64,000 nt of DNA from positions 19,325 through 83,324 of IMG/VR virus record IMGVR_UViG_2706796350_000001; one strand, 5' to 3'. A model generated the notes under the pieces. That model made no database searches. It saw only the letters and a program-made list of their open reading frames with translations, and was not told the origin of the DNA. This document shows positions 48 through 29,047 of this stretch, in pieces. The translations under genes were made by a program, and so were the position numbers. This DNA comes from a virus. Taxonomy: Duplodnaviria > Caudoviricetes. Numbering within the stretch: the first letter of the stretch is position 1; each line of letters opens with the position of its first letter.

Positions 48-623
48 ATGGCTACACAGCGACGTACCCGCCCCCGTCCGGCGAAGAAGACCACTCCCCC
101 GGCACAGCGCGTAGACGCGCCTGTGGAGGTCGATGAGGTCGAACCCGCCACCAACACCCAGGAACCCGCCGACATCGACGCAGCGGACGAGCTGGGCGGT
201 GTTTTGGACGCCGACAGCACTGTTCCCGACGCCGGTCCCCCGACCGATGACGACGAGAGTGGTGAAGACGACGCAGACGATGTGTCGGATGAGGTCGACG
301 ACGAGGATCACGAAGACGCCATCTACAACTCGGAGTTCCGCACGTTCTGGAACGAGTACGTAGAGACCAACGGCATCAACCTGCCCGAGGGCCACGTTCT
401 GTTCCCCGACGAACCGCTGACGTTCAAGGGCAACACCCTTCGCGGTTCCGTCGTCGAGGTGAGCGAGGACATCTACCGCATGGTGATCCCATTCCGCTCG
501 AAGCGCCCGACGTTCGTTCTCGTGGCTCGTGCCGGAACCATCGTGCCCAAGGCCAAGTTCGTCACCGCCGAGGACTACCGCACTGCAACGCAGGGTGCCC
601 TCGACGTTCTGCTCGGAGAGTGA
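48..623 (+). CDS. Virion-associated hypothetical protein (acidic N-terminal half), upstream of head-tail adaptor
   Basis: 191-aa ORF with SD GGAAAGTGAG and strong GC3 bias; first gene of the structural operon in this window. Confidence 0.7.
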   Translation: MATQRRTRPRPAKKTTPPAQRVDAPVEVDEVEPATNTQEPADIDAADELGGVLDADSTVPDAGPPTDDDESGEDDADDVSDEVDDEDHEDAIYNSEFRTFWNEYVETNGINLPEGHVLFPDEPLTFKGNTLRGSVVEVSEDIYRMVIPFRSKRPTFVLVARAGTIVPKAKFVTAEDYRTATQGALDVLLGE

Positions 624-1202: not shown

Positions 1203-1672
1203 GCGTCGACATCGTTGTCTCTGGTGGCACGGGGCGGGCACGAGACAGGCTCAGGACGATCAAGACCCGAGCCGCCTATCCAGACGCCGCATGGAGGGCC
1301 GTGGGCCGTTATCTGGCCCGCGAGGTGGACAAGCAGTTCATCACCCGTGGTGCGAACTTCGGGACGCCCTGGAAGCCTCTGGCGTCCAGCACGATCATGC
1401 AGAAGCGCATGGCCGGTTTCCCCGCTCAGCCATTGGTTCGTACCGGCGGCATGAAGCGAGGGTTTCTCTATCCGGCAATCGTTAAGAACGCCAGAGGTTC
1501 GACGGCATCGTTCGGTAGTGGAGACATCATCGCGACATATCAGCACATGGGTACGAGCTTGAACGGCAAGCCGCACATTCCCGCACGCAAGATTATGAAG
1601 GTGACTCCGAAGATGCGTAAAGATGTTCGACGCATTCTCGCTCGCTACCTGATCGATGGAGCAACGACATGA
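1199..1672 (+). CDS. Virion morphogenesis / tail completion protein (Mu gpG-like)
   Basis: W.PLA.ST...K, PLVRTG, YA..HQ.G-like and IPAR motifs; GTGA overlap with previous gene. Confidence 0.7.
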   Translation: MSVDIVVSGGTGRARDRLRTIKTRAAYPDAAWRAVGRYLAREVDKQFITRGANFGTPWKPLASSTIMQKRMAGFPAQPLVRTGGMKRGFLYPAIVKNARGSTASFGSGDIIATYQHMGTSLNGKPHIPARKIMKVTPKMRKDVRRILARYLIDGATT

Positions 1673-2378: not shown

Positions 2379-2708
2379 ATGAAGCTCGTATTCAATCCGA
2401 GCCAGACGGATTCGGTTGTCTACAGTGACGACGGCTTGATGGTCGCTCCCGGTGAGTGGGCCTATCTCGACGACGACACCTACCGCCGTATCGACAACTT
2501 GCTCAACACTCGAAAGCTGGTGGAGGTGGAAGTTCCGGCAACCATGCCGAGCAACATCGCTCCCGGTGCAGCCGCAGCCATGAAGCGTGCGATCGAGGAT
2601 CGACAGGCTCCGAACGTTGCGGAATCGACCGACGAGGACGACACCCCGTCGCCGGTACGCAATACTGGTCGCAGCCGCAACACCACCACCAAGAAGAAGG
2701 AGGCATAG
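2379..2708 (+). CDS. Hypothetical structural-region protein
   Basis: AAGGAGG SD at 2364-2370 supports ATG 2379 rather than the ORF-track start. Confidence 0.65.
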   Translation: MKLVFNPSQTDSVVYSDDGLMVAPGEWAYLDDDTYRRIDNLLNTRKLVEVEVPATMPSNIAPGAAAAMKRAIEDRQAPNVAESTDEDDTPSPVRNTGRSRNTTTKKKEA

Positions 2709-23890: not shown

Positions 23891-24346
23891 CTACACAGAC
23901 CTTTCCAGGTATTCAATCGCTCTCTGCATACGTTTCGGGTCGTCGGCAAAGAACCCCAGCCCTCGGTTGCAACTGATGCACAGTAGACCTCGAACCTTCC
24001 CTGTCTCGTGGCAGTGGTCCACGCACAAGGTGTACGGCATTTTTCGACGGCAGATAGCGCATCGACCACGCTGCCTCTTCAGGCGCTGACTGAACCAAGT
24101 TACCGTGACGCCGTATCTGCTCAGGCGGTCTTTACGCAGGTCTAGCGCAGTTCTGACGCGTTTAGTGTGCGCCTTTCTAGCATGCGCTTTACGCAACTCA
24201 CGGTGCTCTTCGTTGTCGGCGTATCGCTTGCGCGCTTTACTGTTGTAGCAAGCACGACAACTCGGCAGGTGGCCGCTCTTGTACCTGTCGCTAGGTGGAA
24301 ACTCTTCGGCACCTTTGCTTGCGTTGCAAGTCTTACAGGTGTTCAT
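23891..24346 (-). CDS. Recombination endonuclease VII
   Basis: CAIC.....LCVDHCHETGKVRGLLC.SCN.GLG.F.DD....RAIEYL; N-terminal CxxC...CxxC. Confidence 0.92.
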   Translation of the reverse strand: MNTCKTCNASKGAEEFPPSDRYKSGHLPSCRACYNSKARKRYADNEEHRELRKAHARKAHTKRVRTALDLRKDRLSRYGVTVTWFSQRLKRQRGRCAICRRKMPYTLCVDHCHETGKVRGLLCISCNRGLGFFADDPKRMQRAIEYLERSV

Positions 24347-25290
24347 CGGATTACCTTAGCCTCCGCCAACATCTTTTGAATGGTCGACTGGCTCAGATCG
24401 TTCGCGTCTTTCGCTTTACGCGGCGCGGTAGTCCAATCCACCGTCGATACCTCGAACCATCGCCGCAGGTCTGTACTGCGTTTGCGAATCCACTTGCCAG
24501 TGTTCTCGTCACGTTTCCAGCCAAGGCAGCGTTGCGAAACCTCTTGCCCCGCTCGATCGTTGTCGAAGAACATCGTGATCTTGCGAACTCCCAACATGCG
24601 AAGTTGCTTGATCTGATCGGACGACACCGAACTCCCGTAGATCGCCATCGCCGGGACGCCGGACTGCCACACCGTCATGGCATCGATAGCACCCTCTGTA
24701 AGGGCCACAGACGGCACGTCGGGCATATCTGCGACCAACCAGCTACCGAACAGATGCTCGCGCTTGTGGAAGCCTTTGGGGTACCGGTAGCGGTTCCTCA
24801 TGTCAGGGTCCAGGTAACGGCGACACAGACCGATCAACTCACCGTTCATGTCGCGGATGGGAATAGTCATCGCATCTCGGATCACGTCGTACCCAAGATC
24901 AAACTTGTCGACGGTCGCTTGCTCGAATCCCCGATCGGACCAGTGCCGGGACGGCAACGAGAACTGAGCGAGCTGATCTTCGCTCATACGCGTTTCGGAA
25001 CATACAGGACGCTCTAGGTCACCAATCGCCCGGTAGAGGACATCGAGTCCGACACCCATTGATCGATAACTGACTCCAAAGCGAGACTCAAGCCCCCGTA
25101 TCGAGCCGGACGCTCCGCAACTGAAACAGACGTAGAGTCCTTTGTCGAGGTTGAACTGGAAGCTGGGGGAGTGGTCTTCGTGGAACGGGCAAAGCGCCAG
25201 GGCCTCCGAACCAGTGATCGTGTGGACATTCAAATACCTCTCTGCGAAGTTGCCGTACTTGTGTTGACTGAGATTCATCGCCGTAGTCAC
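24343..25290 (-). CDS. dnaG: DNA primase (CHC2 Zn finger + TOPRIM)
   Basis: LCPFHEDHSPS...CFSCG; TEGAIDAM; FFDNDRAG. Confidence 0.93.
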   Translation of the reverse strand: MTTAMNLSQHKYGNFAERYLNVHTITGSEALALCPFHEDHSPSFQFNLDKGLYVCFSCGASGSIRGLESRFGVSYRSMGVGLDVLYRAIGDLERPVCSETRMSEDQLAQFSLPSRHWSDRGFEQATVDKFDLGYDVIRDAMTIPIRDMNGELIGLCRRYLDPDMRNRYRYPKGFHKREHLFGSWLVADMPDVPSVALTEGAIDAMTVWQSGVPAMAIYGSSVSSDQIKQLRMLGVRKITMFFDNDRAGQEVSQRCLGWKRDENTGKWIRKRSTDLRRWFEVSTVDWTTAPRKAKDANDLSQSTIQKMLAEAKVIR

Positions 25291-26705
25291 TTGATCCGCC
25301 TACGCAACTTGCGACCCGACGCACCGGCCAAAGTCTCTTGCTGTGTGGATTTGATCTTGCTCGTGGAAACCGGCTCACTGCGCTTGCGTGCCTTCGGTCC
25401 CTTGCCCATCTCTTCCATCAGTTTGTCGCGACGGTCGGCATCCTGATCCATGATGTCCTCGGCGCGGTTCTTGCTGACTTCTTCGATGAGTCCGTTGTCC
25501 AGGTCCACGTGCATGTACCAGCAGTAACCCGAGCGACCGTGGCGGTACTTTGCCATCTTTGCCATCGTGACACGATCACTCCGCTTCTTCAGCGTGATCA
25601 CGGCGTCGGCGTCCTGCCCGATAGCGTCAGCCTGTGCGATGGTCTCAGCGCCAGGCGGTTCCTTCGACGGCTCCGAACCACTGCGGTTCAACTGTGCTGC
25701 GGCGACCATGCCAACGCCGTATTGTCCGGCGAGTTGCTTCAGGTCTTTACTGAAATGCCCGATGTCCTGCCACCCTCCGTCACCTCTGGTCTTTGCCAAG
25801 GTGAGGTAATCGAGGTAGTAGACATCGGGCTTGTTGCGTTCCAGATGTGCGGCGATCTCCATCGCGCCGATATTGCGTGTGTCTGTGACGGTGATCGAGC
25901 CTTTGATCTGGTTCGGAAGGTCTTCGAGGAAACGTCGGTAGCTCTTCAGGTCGTATCCCTTGCCCTGAGACAGTTGGACTGACTGGAAGACTGCACGACC
26001 ATAAGACGACGAAAGCAGGTTGTGAAGCCTCATCGTCACTTCGGTCTTGGACATCTCCAAAGCGGCGAAGTGCGCCTTGTAACCTCCGGTGATCGCACCG
26101 CATGCCATCGCGGCCAGCATCCACGACTTGCCTTCACCGAGGCGTGCACCCACGACCCAAAGCTGACCGGGGCCGACACCGCCCGTGAACTCGTCCAGGG
26201 TGCTCATACCGGTGGGAACACCAGACTGCCCAAACTGCTCTGCCCGTAGCTTGCGGGCTTTCACCTCGTTGTAGGTGGACTTCCAGTCGGCCAGCACGTC
26301 GACTTCATCGCTACCGCCCATGTCCCCGGCGATCTTCACGATGCCAGACTGCGCTAGCTCACAAGCCTCCTGAACCTTGCCCTGCGAAAGCAGGTCGGCT
26401 TGGTCACGAAGGTGCTCAGTCAGGCGTGCACGTGTGTGCTCGATCTTGACCTCGGATACGAAGTGCTTGATGTCGTCCACATCTCGAATGCGGAACTTAG
26501 GAAACGCTCGGGTGAATGCGAGCTTCGATGGTGCCTTGCGGTACTTGCTAAAGAACCGGGCGATCCATTCCCACTCGTCGTTGTGAACATGAAACATGTC
26601 CTCGACTGCGCCCTCGGCGAGAGCGGTCTTGACATCCTGTGTCTTGATGACGCTGCTGATAAGCAGAGCCTCTGGCGAAACTGCCATAAGGTTTTGTCCC
26701 TTCAA
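25287..26705 (-). CDS. dnaB: DnaB-like replicative helicase
   Basis: TG...LDEFTGG..PGQLWVVGARLGEGKS, ALEMS, LDYL, AQLNR, QDAD, KYRHG; probable start MAVSP near 26687. Confidence 0.93.
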   Translation of the reverse strand: MKGQNLMAVSPEALLISSVIKTQDVKTALAEGAVEDMFHVHNDEWEWIARFFSKYRKAPSKLAFTRAFPKFRIRDVDDIKHFVSEVKIEHTRARLTEHLRDQADLLSQGKVQEACELAQSGIVKIAGDMGGSDEVDVLADWKSTYNEVKARKLRAEQFGQSGVPTGMSTLDEFTGGVGPGQLWVVGARLGEGKSWMLAAMACGAITGGYKAHFAALEMSKTEVTMRLHNLLSSSYGRAVFQSVQLSQGKGYDLKSYRRFLEDLPNQIKGSITVTDTRNIGAMEIAAHLERNKPDVYYLDYLTLAKTRGDGGWQDIGHFSKDLKQLAGQYGVGMVAAAQLNRSGSEPSKEPPGAETIAQADAIGQDADAVITLKKRSDRVTMAKMAKYRHGRSGYCWYMHVDLDNGLIEEVSKNRAEDIMDQDADRRDKLMEEMGKGPKARKRSEPVSTSKIKSTQQETLAGASGRKLRRRIK

Positions 26706-27186: not shown

Positions 27187-27654
27187 TCACTTCTTCTTGC
27201 GACCGCGAGTCTTCTTCTCGACCTTCACGAGCTGCCACGAAGCCTGAACCTCGTACTCACCCGTTGCCAGCATGCGGGAAAGAATCGACGAGACCATCGA
27301 AGGCGTGTACTTGTCCTTGCCGGTACGAGTGGTCAGCCCGTTGACCTTCTTGATTTCCTTCTCGGCCAGTGCGTTGATTTCCGCACGGTCCGAAGCGCCG
27401 GTCACGAGGGTGGTGGCGATGATGGCCGAATCGGTGCCGACCTGGAAGCCCTCATCGGTGTACTCGATGGGATGCGGTTCGTAGGTCTGAGCCGTCTTCT
27501 TGGCGGCGGGCTTCCGAGTGGTCGCCTTGGTGGTCGTGGCCTTCTTGTTGGCCGGTGCTCGCTTTGCCGGGGTGGCCTTCCGAGCAGTGGTGGTCTTCTT
27601 GGTGGCAGGAGCCGAACGCTTACGGGGTGTCGGCTTCTTCTTCGCTGCGGCCAT
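27187..27654 (-). CDS. Histone-H1-like Lys/Ala-rich tail fused to a small helical DNA-binding-like domain
   Basis: N-terminal ~55 aa of KKPTPRK/PAKR/PAAKK repeats; basic C-terminus. Confidence 0.75.
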   Translation of the reverse strand: MAAAKKKPTPRKRSAPATKKTTTARKATPAKRAPANKKATTTKATTRKPAAKKTAQTYEPHPIEYTDEGFQVGTDSAIIATTLVTGASDRAEINALAEKEIKKVNGLTTRTGKDKYTPSMVSSILSRMLATGEYEVQASWQLVKVEKKTRGRKKK

Positions 27655-27723
27655 GTTGTCCTCACTAGGTTTGGTGGGTTAGCAGTTCCTCGGTGTTGAC
27701 GAACTGATGAACTAACGACACAG

Positions 27724-27753
27724 ACACTACACCTAAGTTGTCCACAGTGGCAA
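27724..27753 (-). promoter_or_regulatory. Leftward SigA-type promoter candidate
   Basis: Minus strand TTGCCA-N18-TAGTGT upstream of the histone-like gene. Confidence 0.45.
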
Positions 27754-27779
27754 ACATGCAGCTAGAACCGATATTGCAA

Positions 27780-28060
27780 ACTTACTCAACCAAGTTTTAA
27801 ACCTGCATGGACTCTCTACTTATATATCTATCTTTATCTCTATAGGGGGTAAGTACTTTATTAACTTACTCGATCTATGTAAGTACTTCTGTAATTACTC
27901 ATCTACCAAAACTATAACTTATAGAACTAACGTATCTGGACTCTAAACCAGCCCTATGCAAGTCTAAACCAGTACTTTTAGGGTTGTAGCAAAGTGCTTG
28001 CAATTGCAAATAAGCCTTTGACCAGGGGTTTTAGTAACTTCAGGATCACATATAAGGGAA
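27780..28060. other. AT-rich putative replication origin / control region
   Basis: About 32% GC at 27841-27900; GTAAGTACTT x2, TCTAAACCAG x2, palindromes CTATAACTTATAG and TTGCAATTGCAA; lies at the strand switch next to dnaB/dnaG. Confidence 0.55.
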
Positions 28061-28063
28061 CAG

Positions 28064-28092
28064 TTGACATCACTATCCACATAGGGCATAAT
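28064..28092 (+). promoter_or_regulatory. Strong SigA-type promoter
   Basis: TTGACA (28064-28069) - 17 nt - CATAAT (28087-28092). Confidence 0.85.
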
Positions 28093-28098
28093 AGATCA

Positions 28099-28660
28099 TG
28101 CAAGACGTTGAAAACTAAAGCAGCGGACAGAGTAAGCGGCAACGCCCCTTCGGAAGATACGGGCCGGGCCGCAACGCGAGAGCCACTGAATATCGAAAAT
28201 GGATCTAGCTGGTGAACCCAACGAGGTCTGTGCATGTACTGCGATCACCCGATACGGGGTGGCACGCGAGCTTCTGGACATAGGTAGACAGAACGCATGC
28301 ATGGGCCTGCGGGGATAGATACGAGTGACAGACGTATCGACACTGCCAAAATCGCCAAGTGATGCGCGTGAGAACAGCAGTCATCCGTTTCGGAGTGGAA
28401 GTTAAAGCCTGTAGGGGCGAAGTACAACCGGAGCGACGATGACCCTTGCGGGTGTGCATGTGATGCGAGAAGTAGCGGAATCAGAAATCACGGTGCTGGT
28501 GTAGCGACAGACAGCTACCCCTCAGATCGACCGAGTGCGCAATCGTTTAGCCGAGGTTGCGGCGCATTCGGGGATACCTAAACCATCGGCCCTACCTTAT
28601 GGGTAGACCGTCCGACACTTGGCAACAACTGCCGCTGTAGTGAGCCAAGTGTCGAGGCGG
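28099..28660 (+). ncRNA. Candidate large structured non-coding RNA or long 5-prime leader (~560 nt)
   Basis: No credible ORF between promoter and gene 28709; many helices including a 14-bp stem with 4 G-U pairs, a 10-bp stem and an 11-bp stem. Confidence 0.55.
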
Positions 28661-28708
28661 TGTTCCATGAGTCAGGAAAACCACCAACAGCAACATTAAG
28701 GAGTCACC

Positions 28709-29047
28709 ATGACTACACGTACCGCAACATTTGCACGCCGCCGCTTCACCGTCGAGAACATCGCAGGGCAGGACGTGCGCTTGCATCAGGGGTCGCCGTT
28801 CTGCGACCCGACCGGCGAAGCACCGATCGAGCTTCCGTTCGTCACTGAAAAGATCAGCGAGCGTCGATCGCACGGAACGTGCATCGTGGACGGGTACTAC
28901 TACGAGGTCAACTACTACCCGCACAACTACGCTTCCACTGGCGAGAACTGGTACGTGCTGGGCGTGGAAGACGAGCACGGAACCGAGATTCACTACTCGG
29001 AGCACCGCACCATAGAAGACGCTAAGGCGTACGCAGCACTGATCTAG
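28709..29047 (+). CDS. Hypothetical early protein
   Basis: SD AAGGAG; strong codon bias. Confidence 0.75.
   Translation: MTTRTATFARRRFTVENIAGQDVRLHQGSPFCDPTGEAPIELPFVTEKISERRSHGTCIVDGYYYEVNYYPHNYASTGENWYVLGVEDEHGTEIHYSEHRTIEDAKAYAALI

Follow-up and report, generated by a model that had tools for sequence, protein, structure and literature searches.

The window analysed here, a stretch of 64,000 nucleotides, was taken from an IMG/VR virus record of 83.3 kb, in which it occupies bases 19325-83324. Its structural and lysis genes are followed by a block of leftward replication genes, an AT-rich divergence region and a rightward early operon, at the head of which lies the region described in this study. 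The features referred to below, numbered from the first base of the window, are the following.

up to ~23.8 kb, rightward: structural and lysis genes
23891-26705, leftward: endonuclease VII, primase and DnaB helicase (DnaB at 25287-26705)
27187-27654, minus strand: basic ORF of 155 aa, first gene of the leftward replication operon
27700-28060: AT-rich divergence region with 37-44% G+C, which separates the promoter from the leftward replication genes; given as context and outside the RNA
28064-28092, plus strand: early promoter of the SigA/sigma-70 type, TTGACA-17-CATAAT, 11/12 consensus positions
28099-28708, plus strand: the whole putative untranslated structured leader RNA, ~610 nt, beginning at the predicted start and ending one base ahead of the ATG
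28106-28123, plus strand: rrn-type boxA/boxC-like box with the core TTGAAAACT at 28108-28116, ~10 nt past the predicted start
28136-28172, plus strand: predicted hairpin of the 5' domain (MFE; helix 28136-40/28168-72)
28224-28308, plus strand: three-way-junction module (match of models R1/R2 at 28229-28303, 80 and 56 bits)
28318-28338, plus strand: hairpin GATACG/CGTATC with the invariant 7-nt loop GUGACAG (28325-28331)
28420-28468, plus strand: central conserved single-stranded blocks, collinear k-mers shared with the uncultured relative L002
28603-28665, plus strand: 3' domain (model R3, 75.9 bits)
28709-29047, plus strand: first early ORF, 112 aa, with the Shine-Dalgarno sequence AAGGAG at 28698-28703 and the ATG at 28709

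The rightward operon is longer than 35 kb and includes genes for an AAA ATPase (PHROG label 'porphyrin biosynthesis', AAA-ATPase in the annotation of relatives) and a CobT-like protein. As judged by DnaB, the nearest named relatives are Gordonia phages (64%) and the Brevibacterium phage Cantare (49-50%), and the phage of the window is therefore regarded as an actinobacteriophage. Since a blastn search of the RNA region against 50,697 phage records gave no match, relatives were gathered via the neighbouring DnaB protein. Every DnaB-defined relative fetched shows the same synteny, with DnaB and primase leftward and the AAA ATPase/CobT-like genes rightward, and each has a gap of 0.4-1.24 kb without called genes at the syntenic place. 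The gap measures ~900-1,240 nt in all but three loci, namely L021 (655 nt), Cantare (~660 nt) and DalanDe (~400 nt). Parts of the RNA are recognisable in 9 metagenomic contigs and in 9 cultured Gordonia phages of the Chidiebere group; 11 records of these cultured phages contain it, and GenBank leaves the gap, which in Chidiebere (MN586022) separates genes 69 and 70, unannotated.

On the left of the gap, the basic 155-aa ORF is kept in all relatives with 46-81% identity across the C-terminal 80 residues, and a PHROG search with it gave no match. The adjoining AT-rich region contains short blocks that are conserved among relatives whose flanks no longer align, and operators or an origin may sit there. 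On the right, relatives of the 112-aa ORF are absent from the IMG/VR viral contigs and from all 13 related loci; in general, the gene directly 3' of the RNA varies between phages. As this ORF is an orphan and the 3' domain of the RNA is kept, the RNA is better conserved than the gene that follows it.

Most of the gap DNA is unalignable among relatives. What remains are short identical blocks, collinear and split by differing stretches, which is the pattern that would be expected of a structured RNA. In pattern scans of IMG/VR, one core pattern retrieved only an already known relative and the strict pattern of the three-way-junction module found nothing; a second pattern gave 4 matches, all of them within coding regions and judged to be due to chance.

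The promoter consists of the -35 hexamer TTGACA (28064-28069), a spacer of 17 nt and the -10 hexamer CATAAT (28087-28092), and predicts a transcription start at ~28099. Within the spacer, the box CATAGGGC adjoins the -10 hexamer and is kept in six uncultured relatives (L002 and L008-L012). Lying within 28080-28094, it is nearly invariant in these six, though the -35 region drifts. The Gordonia phages have a related TTGACT promoter with the spacer CATAGGCG ahead of the -10. Conservation of the spacer box suggests an extra contact, e.g. with a regulator or as a discriminator-like element.

The initial annotation had described this promoter and, behind it, about 610 nt without a credible ORF up to the Shine-Dalgarno sequence at 28698, which is what we find as well. 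Between 28099 and 28708 no plus-strand ORF exceeds 39 aa, and the short ORFs of 26-39 aa that do exist are not conserved. Six-frame peptides gave matches solely in the stretch that is 88% identical at the DNA level to L009, and there in all six frames; conservation is not frame-specific, and the region is non-coding. An intrinsic terminator was sought within 28099-28708, ahead of the first ORF, and none was found. The GC skew is +0.10 to +0.21 throughout 28050-28650, unlike in the flanks.

Structure and family status of the RNA

Folding was compared with dinucleotide shuffles, one of the checks that had been proposed together with the initial annotation. The plus strand reaches an MFE of -222.7 kcal/mol compared with -194.6 +/- 5.6 for the shuffles (z -5.05), the minus strand of the same region a z of -1.56. 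This strand-specific stability agrees with the earlier view that the frequent G-U pairs point to selection at the RNA level. For the Chidiebere RNA the z-score is -2.76 versus -0.27 on the other strand, and for L002 it is -0.55, which is not significant. The MFE z-scores are uneven between relatives and were hence not used as main evidence.

A second proposed check, the covariance-model search against Rfam 15, gave no match for the window at the gathering score, none in 27600-28800 at E<=10 and, for six relatives searched over the homologous region, none at E<=5. The families tested without a match in the window include GOLLD, ROOL, OLE, HEARO, raiA, T-box, riboswitches and ribozymes as well as group I/II introns, tmRNA, RNase P, 6S and Y RNA. 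By eye, the initial annotation had seen no resemblance to tmRNA, RNase P or group I/II cores.

Strong covariation among homologues, the third point to be checked, was found in three separate elements, namely the three-way junction, the GUGACAG hairpin and the long helix of the 3' domain. The alignments were built through covariance models because plain MAFFT misaligned the modules. As such alignments lean towards their model, we relied on controls in which the pairing partner was slid and on an independent RNAalifold run. The relatives are few and related, by which shuffle controls overstate significance; slid-partner controls are fairer, and the structure passes them. Divergence in the middle of the RNA precludes reliable alignment there, and the covariation tests were confined to the three elements.

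The three-way-junction module spans ~80 nt. In detail, its order is P1, UA-CUGCGAYC, P2, GCACGCKAGCU, P3, CG and P1', with P1 at 28230-37/28295-302 (extendable to 28224/28308), P2 at 28240-28268 and P3 at 28272-28293, the latter carrying a conserved 12-nt loop (28277-28288). Invariant parts are the two junction strands, CUGCGAYC and GCACGCKAGCU, and the base of P2 (UGCG with CGCG). The first covariance model was made from 5 copies and the second from its 14 matches. True copies score 50-73 bits and always lie on the RNA strand. The window has one copy, L002, L008, L009 and L010 have two in tandem, and the Gordonia phages have two strong copies and a weak third. In 13 distinct copies, 95.4% of cells are paired compared with 72% in shuffled and 21-59% in slid-partner controls, and changes on both sides occur in 10 of the 19 module pairs. 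The independent RNAalifold run predicted the same junction. Models R2 and R3 match only this locus and only this strand. Among 185,579 species genomes, the strict module pattern found 4 matches, all at <=19 bits compared with 50-73 bits for true copies, which were taken as chance. A tandem-module pattern gave 18 matches in JGI metagenomes, none of them real; one of these, L040, is an unrelated 27-nt tandem repeat.

The GUGACAG hairpin shows compensatory change in all six of its pairs (8 sequences), with 83% of cells paired versus 44% in shuffled and 25-35% in slid controls, and is found in the distant relatives L011 and L012 too. Watson-Crick partners of its loop and of the P3 loop were sought within the RNA, and none is conserved.

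The 3' domain of the window is made up of GACCGU, helix H1 (28613-23/28644-54), the loop AACAAC-NN-CCG...GUGA and GGCGG. Across the family, H1 comprises 11-13 bp, its loop carries AACAAC-NN-CCG and GUGA, and GCGG follows. Paired cells of H1 amount to 96.8% compared with 77% after shuffling, and six of nine pairs show compensatory changes. R3 matches all clade members and also L011, L012 and L020; on the complete genomes of Chidiebere and UBSmoodge it matches this locus alone, and on the whole genome of the Brevibacterium phage Cantare the 3' domain was not found. A pseudoknot could form between the CCG of the loop and a CGG directly 3' of H1, both of them invariant. The domain ends 40-100 nt ahead of the first start codon, and several relatives have extra hairpins inserted into its loop. 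In L008 (~2522-2532, minus strand) and L017 (~2397-2407, minus strand) such an extra hairpin, absent from the window, bears the 10-nt loop GAUCACCUCC, which equals the 16S rRNA 3' end (compared with L039) and is unique in each 10-kb locus.

Other parts of the RNA are less evenly distributed. The stretch 28078-28210 (~130 nt), which includes the 5' domain, is 88% identical to L009 by blastn, the remainder being beyond DNA alignment. The 5' domain is wholly missing from L002 and L010. Phages appear to exchange domains of this RNA in a modular fashion. In the centre, the blocks AAGUACAACC (28420-29) and GUGAUGCGA (28460-68) are separated by variable hairpins; the former recurs in L008-L010, the latter in L002 only.

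The coordinates given in the initial annotation hold. Of the helices that it had found by hand, those at 28224-28237/28295-28308, 28318-28338 and 28613-28623/28644-28654 covary in relatives; those at 28136-40/28168-72, 28501-18, 28531-40/28562-71 and 28592-606 are present in the single-sequence MFE structure, and the helix 28380-85/28438-43 is not found in it.

We define the family by the module, the GUGACAG hairpin and the 3' domain, which follow one another in this order on a single strand, past the early promoter and ahead of the first early ORF. In the window these elements lie at 28229-28303, 28318-28338 and 28603-28665, and the same order occurs in L002, L008, L009, L010 and the Gordonia phages. 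L011 and L012 are without the module, and L020 has the 3' domain alone. The RNA measures ~610 nt in the window and ~600-830 nt in relatives. We regard it as almost certain that this is a real conserved RNA structure and as highly probable that the RNA is part of the early 5' leader. On comparative sequence evidence it represents a new RNA family, large, structured and composed of several domains, which is uncatalogued in Rfam. In the literature searched we found neither a description of this RNA nor a transcriptome or RNA report for these phages. Untranslated transcription units headed by boxA and early non-coding leaders of actinophages are known kinds; what is new is the RNA family.

The rrn-type box at the 5' end

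The 5' ends of the family resemble the nut site of the mycobacterial rrn leader. The labels boxA and boxC for the actinobacterial rrn sequence follow the usage attributed to Arnvig 2004 and Beuth 2005. Allowing 0-3 mismatches, the rrn-leader 20-mer is present in 43 of 301 Actinomycetota genomes, often in several copies each, whereas the reversed 20-mer, used as a control, gave about a dozen scattered single matches. (The 43 genomes include 4 unpublished ones, G049, G083, G089 and G121, on which the claims made here do not rest.) The rrn box of three loci is found ~135-150 nt ahead of 16S, and the 16S-23S spacer contains a variant of it.

Nucleotides 3-30 of the predicted L002 transcript agree with the actinobacterial rrn leader at 25 of 28 positions. 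In L002, L008, L011 and L012, no other place in the 10-kb locus, on either strand, matches the rrn box as well as the one at transcript nt 9-52, with scores of 15-17/20 overall (17/20 in L008, 16/20 in L011 and 15/20 in L012). In the window, L002 and L008-L012 the box falls within nt 7-52 of the predicted transcript; the best candidate of the Gordonia phages scores 13/20 and lies ~110 nt into the RNA. As judged from these matches, the family carries, in several relatives, a close copy of the rrn leader box of the host clade.

In the window itself the box is degenerate, matching ungapped at 13/20, a score that 94 places in the window reach equally. The pattern TTGANAACT has two matches in the 64 kb, and the box is one of them. 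Its 12-nt core TTGAAAACTAAA (28108-28119) equals the rrn variant of three genomes (G065, G130 and G144, with sizes of 1.3-2.2 Mb), which are the sole ones with that variant among the 301 sampled Actinomycetota genomes. This core variant differs from the Mycobacteriales-type box that L002 copies. The box variant might serve as a clue to the host.

One further likeness to rRNA was set aside. At transcript nt 90-105, L017 has a 16-nt perfect complement of a variable region of actinobacterial 16S rRNA (15/16 in Chidiebere), which is possibly due to chance given its GC-richness and the small search space, and it was not used.

Possible function and alternative explanations

The clade of phages that has this RNA in the 5' part of its predicted early rightward transcript comprises the Chidiebere-group Gordonia phages and uncultured relatives. 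An untranslated RNA of 600-800 nt is an obvious target of Rho, a problem that rRNA operons answer with boxA. In the scheme that we infer for this clade, from the transcription start through Nus loading and Rho protection to protein binding and any processing, the near-consensus SigA promoter would fire early, and the nascent RNA would expose the rrn-leader-like boxA/boxC within its first 10-50 nt. As happens in rRNA operons, the box would load NusB/S10 together with NusA/NusG onto RNA polymerase. So modified, the polymerase would pass the 600-800 nt of untranslated, G-rich, folded RNA, escaping Rho termination, and would continue into the rightward operon, which exceeds 35 kb; that it would run on into this operon follows from the lack of a terminator ahead of the first ORF. 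The folded body, with its 1-3 modules, the GUGACAG loop and the 3' domain beside the first RBS, may bind a host or phage protein and may constitute an abundant early RNA, possibly processed.

Taken as a whole, the reading of the locus as a unit like an rRNA operon, in which Nus-modified polymerase transcribes a folded leader and then the early operon, the body perhaps acting as a protein platform, has in our estimate a probability of about 0.5. Nus loading by the box is slightly favoured for the family as a whole, whereas for the window's own copy of the box it is only tentatively proposed. To form the Rho-blocking rrn antitermination complex, boxA is both required and enough (PMC13753749), and the boxC of rrn is bound by NusA of M. 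tuberculosis (PMC2724277). The positive GC skew fits a structured RNA that is a poor substrate of Rho. Of the initial proposals of a new large ncRNA, a structured leader or an antiterminator, all three find support, in the missing Rfam match, the covariation, the lack of a terminator and the rrn box of relatives.

Because a boxA needs just ~12 nt, this reading accounts for the box but not for a body of 600 nt. The body is suggested to have a job of its own, either in trans or for the operon as a whole, for three reasons: the 3' domain is kept while the following gene is not, close relatives differ by the gain, loss and duplication of domains, and there are invariant loops without a Watson-Crick partner inside the RNA. 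A role as a protein platform appears to us the most likely one by analogy with the abundant, stable and toxic Pleft RNA of the L5 type, but as an assignment it is doubtful.

Other explanations account for parts of these data. If the modules were ligand-binding aptamers in tandem, or if the 3' domain served as a translational switch, the RNA would be a cis-acting sensor by which the early operon is tuned to a host metabolite or state. Invariant junction nucleotides combined with variable helices are indeed typical of aptamers, the 1-3 module copies recall tandem riboswitches, and the 3' domain ends near the start codon, at a distance of 40-100 nt. However, the module itself is ~400 nt upstream of the ORF, no terminator, anti-terminator or SD-sequestering partner was found nearby, the module was not found in bacterial genomes (the 185,579 species genomes mentioned above), and the following gene is not conserved, which makes a sensor unlikely. 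A typical riboswitch in particular is ruled out by the missing expression platform, the absence from the cellular genomes searched and the varying downstream gene. We consider it still less probable that an ornate RNA acts alone and without protein, either as a ribozyme or as a self-assembling oligomer like ROOL and GOLLD. Those RNAs are alike in size, in having multi-stem junctions and many conserved unpaired nucleotides, and in occurring in phages (PMC12286853), and invariant loops without Watson-Crick partners would fit tertiary or intermolecular contacts, but no ribozyme or ornate RNA of Rfam matched even at E<=10, the phage RNA is joined to an mRNA, unlike GOLLD and ROOL, and domains that come and go among close relatives would be unusual in a catalytic core.

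Similarly improbable is the idea of a pseudo-rRNA unit, in which promoter, rrn box and a folded RNA mimicking rRNA binding sites by its modules and loops would sequester the Nus/rrn machinery itself, ribosomal proteins or assembly factors, by which the phage would, early in infection, divert the translation or ribosome production of its host. The loop that copies the 16S 3' end in some relatives was counted towards it, and if true, it would represent a new class of viral RNA decoy against ribosome biogenesis. A transcript that primes or activates a replication origin, in the manner of ColE1 RNA II or the origin transcripts of T4 and T7, is very improbable: the AT-rich block is upstream of the promoter and outside the transcript, transcription heads away from the replication genes and straight into the early ORFs, and the conserved features are RNA helices and loops instead of a hybrid-forming tract, even though the RNA does adjoin an AT-rich, repeat-bearing region and replication genes and R-loops are favoured by G-rich RNA. 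Finally, that there is no RNA structure at all, and that DNA-level protein-binding repeats or small coding genes are conserved instead, hardly deserves credence. Junction strands recurring 1-3 times do have an iteron-like appearance, and ORFs of 26-39 aa exist; yet in three elements pairing is maintained through compensatory change, with the slid controls collapsing, G-U pairs and strand-specific stability point to RNA, and the conservation is not frame-specific.

Among known systems, the rrn leader antiterminator with boxA/boxC and the Nus complex is alike in that a box just past a strong promoter heads a long untranslated structured RNA. It differs in that the phage box precedes an mRNA and not rRNA; moreover, the box of the window is degenerate. 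The copy of the rrn box suggests that these phages may borrow the rRNA antitermination system of their hosts, of which we know no prior description for actinobacteriophages. Lambda nut and HK022 put act on the polymerase that made them, nut requiring the N protein and a boxB hairpin and put consisting of two hairpins of ~65 nt. These sites also lie just downstream of early promoters (for nut, see PMC2724277), but neither has a conserved body of 600 nt, and no sequence likeness to the present RNA was seen.

A comparable setting is that of the Pleft early ncRNA of cluster A mycobacteriophages (L5, D29 and StarStuff), ~500 nt without ORFs, which is abundant, stable and toxic and which, as here, comes from an ORF-free actinophage region directly downstream of an early lytic promoter (PMC5712189). 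The two RNAs differ in that they share no motif and that the L5 RNA has no reported covarying architecture. For homology, the module model alone was tried: R2 reached <=10.7 bits on L5 50500-52297 with filters off. GOLLD, ROOL and OLE are alike in their 600-800 nt, conserved unpaired nucleotides and multi-stem junctions, and GOLLD and ROOL in their phage setting as well (PMC12286853). They differ in showing no covariance-model similarity, and the present RNA is an operon leader, modular and varying between close relatives.

The locus gives a handle on a puzzle of actinophages, namely why a long abundant ncRNA follows early lytic promoters, as Pleft does in L5 and D29. Few RNAs are both large and rich in conserved structure, and most of those have been found to do unusual things. 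The nine cultured Gordonia phages with the RNA belong to the SEA-PHAGES collection and have an easily grown host, so that expression, partners and deletion phenotype of the RNA are testable.

A minor observation concerns a possible long-range pairing of the box. A helix between UGUUUGAU and AUCAAACA was not seen in the window and shows no covariation. In L002, however, UGUUUGAU, the boxA core (~1281-1288, minus strand), can pair with AUCAAACA (~608-615, minus strand) just before the first RBS, as is also the case in L008, and in the MFE structure of L002 this pairing closes the entire RNA, like the leader-trailer helix of pre-16S rRNA.
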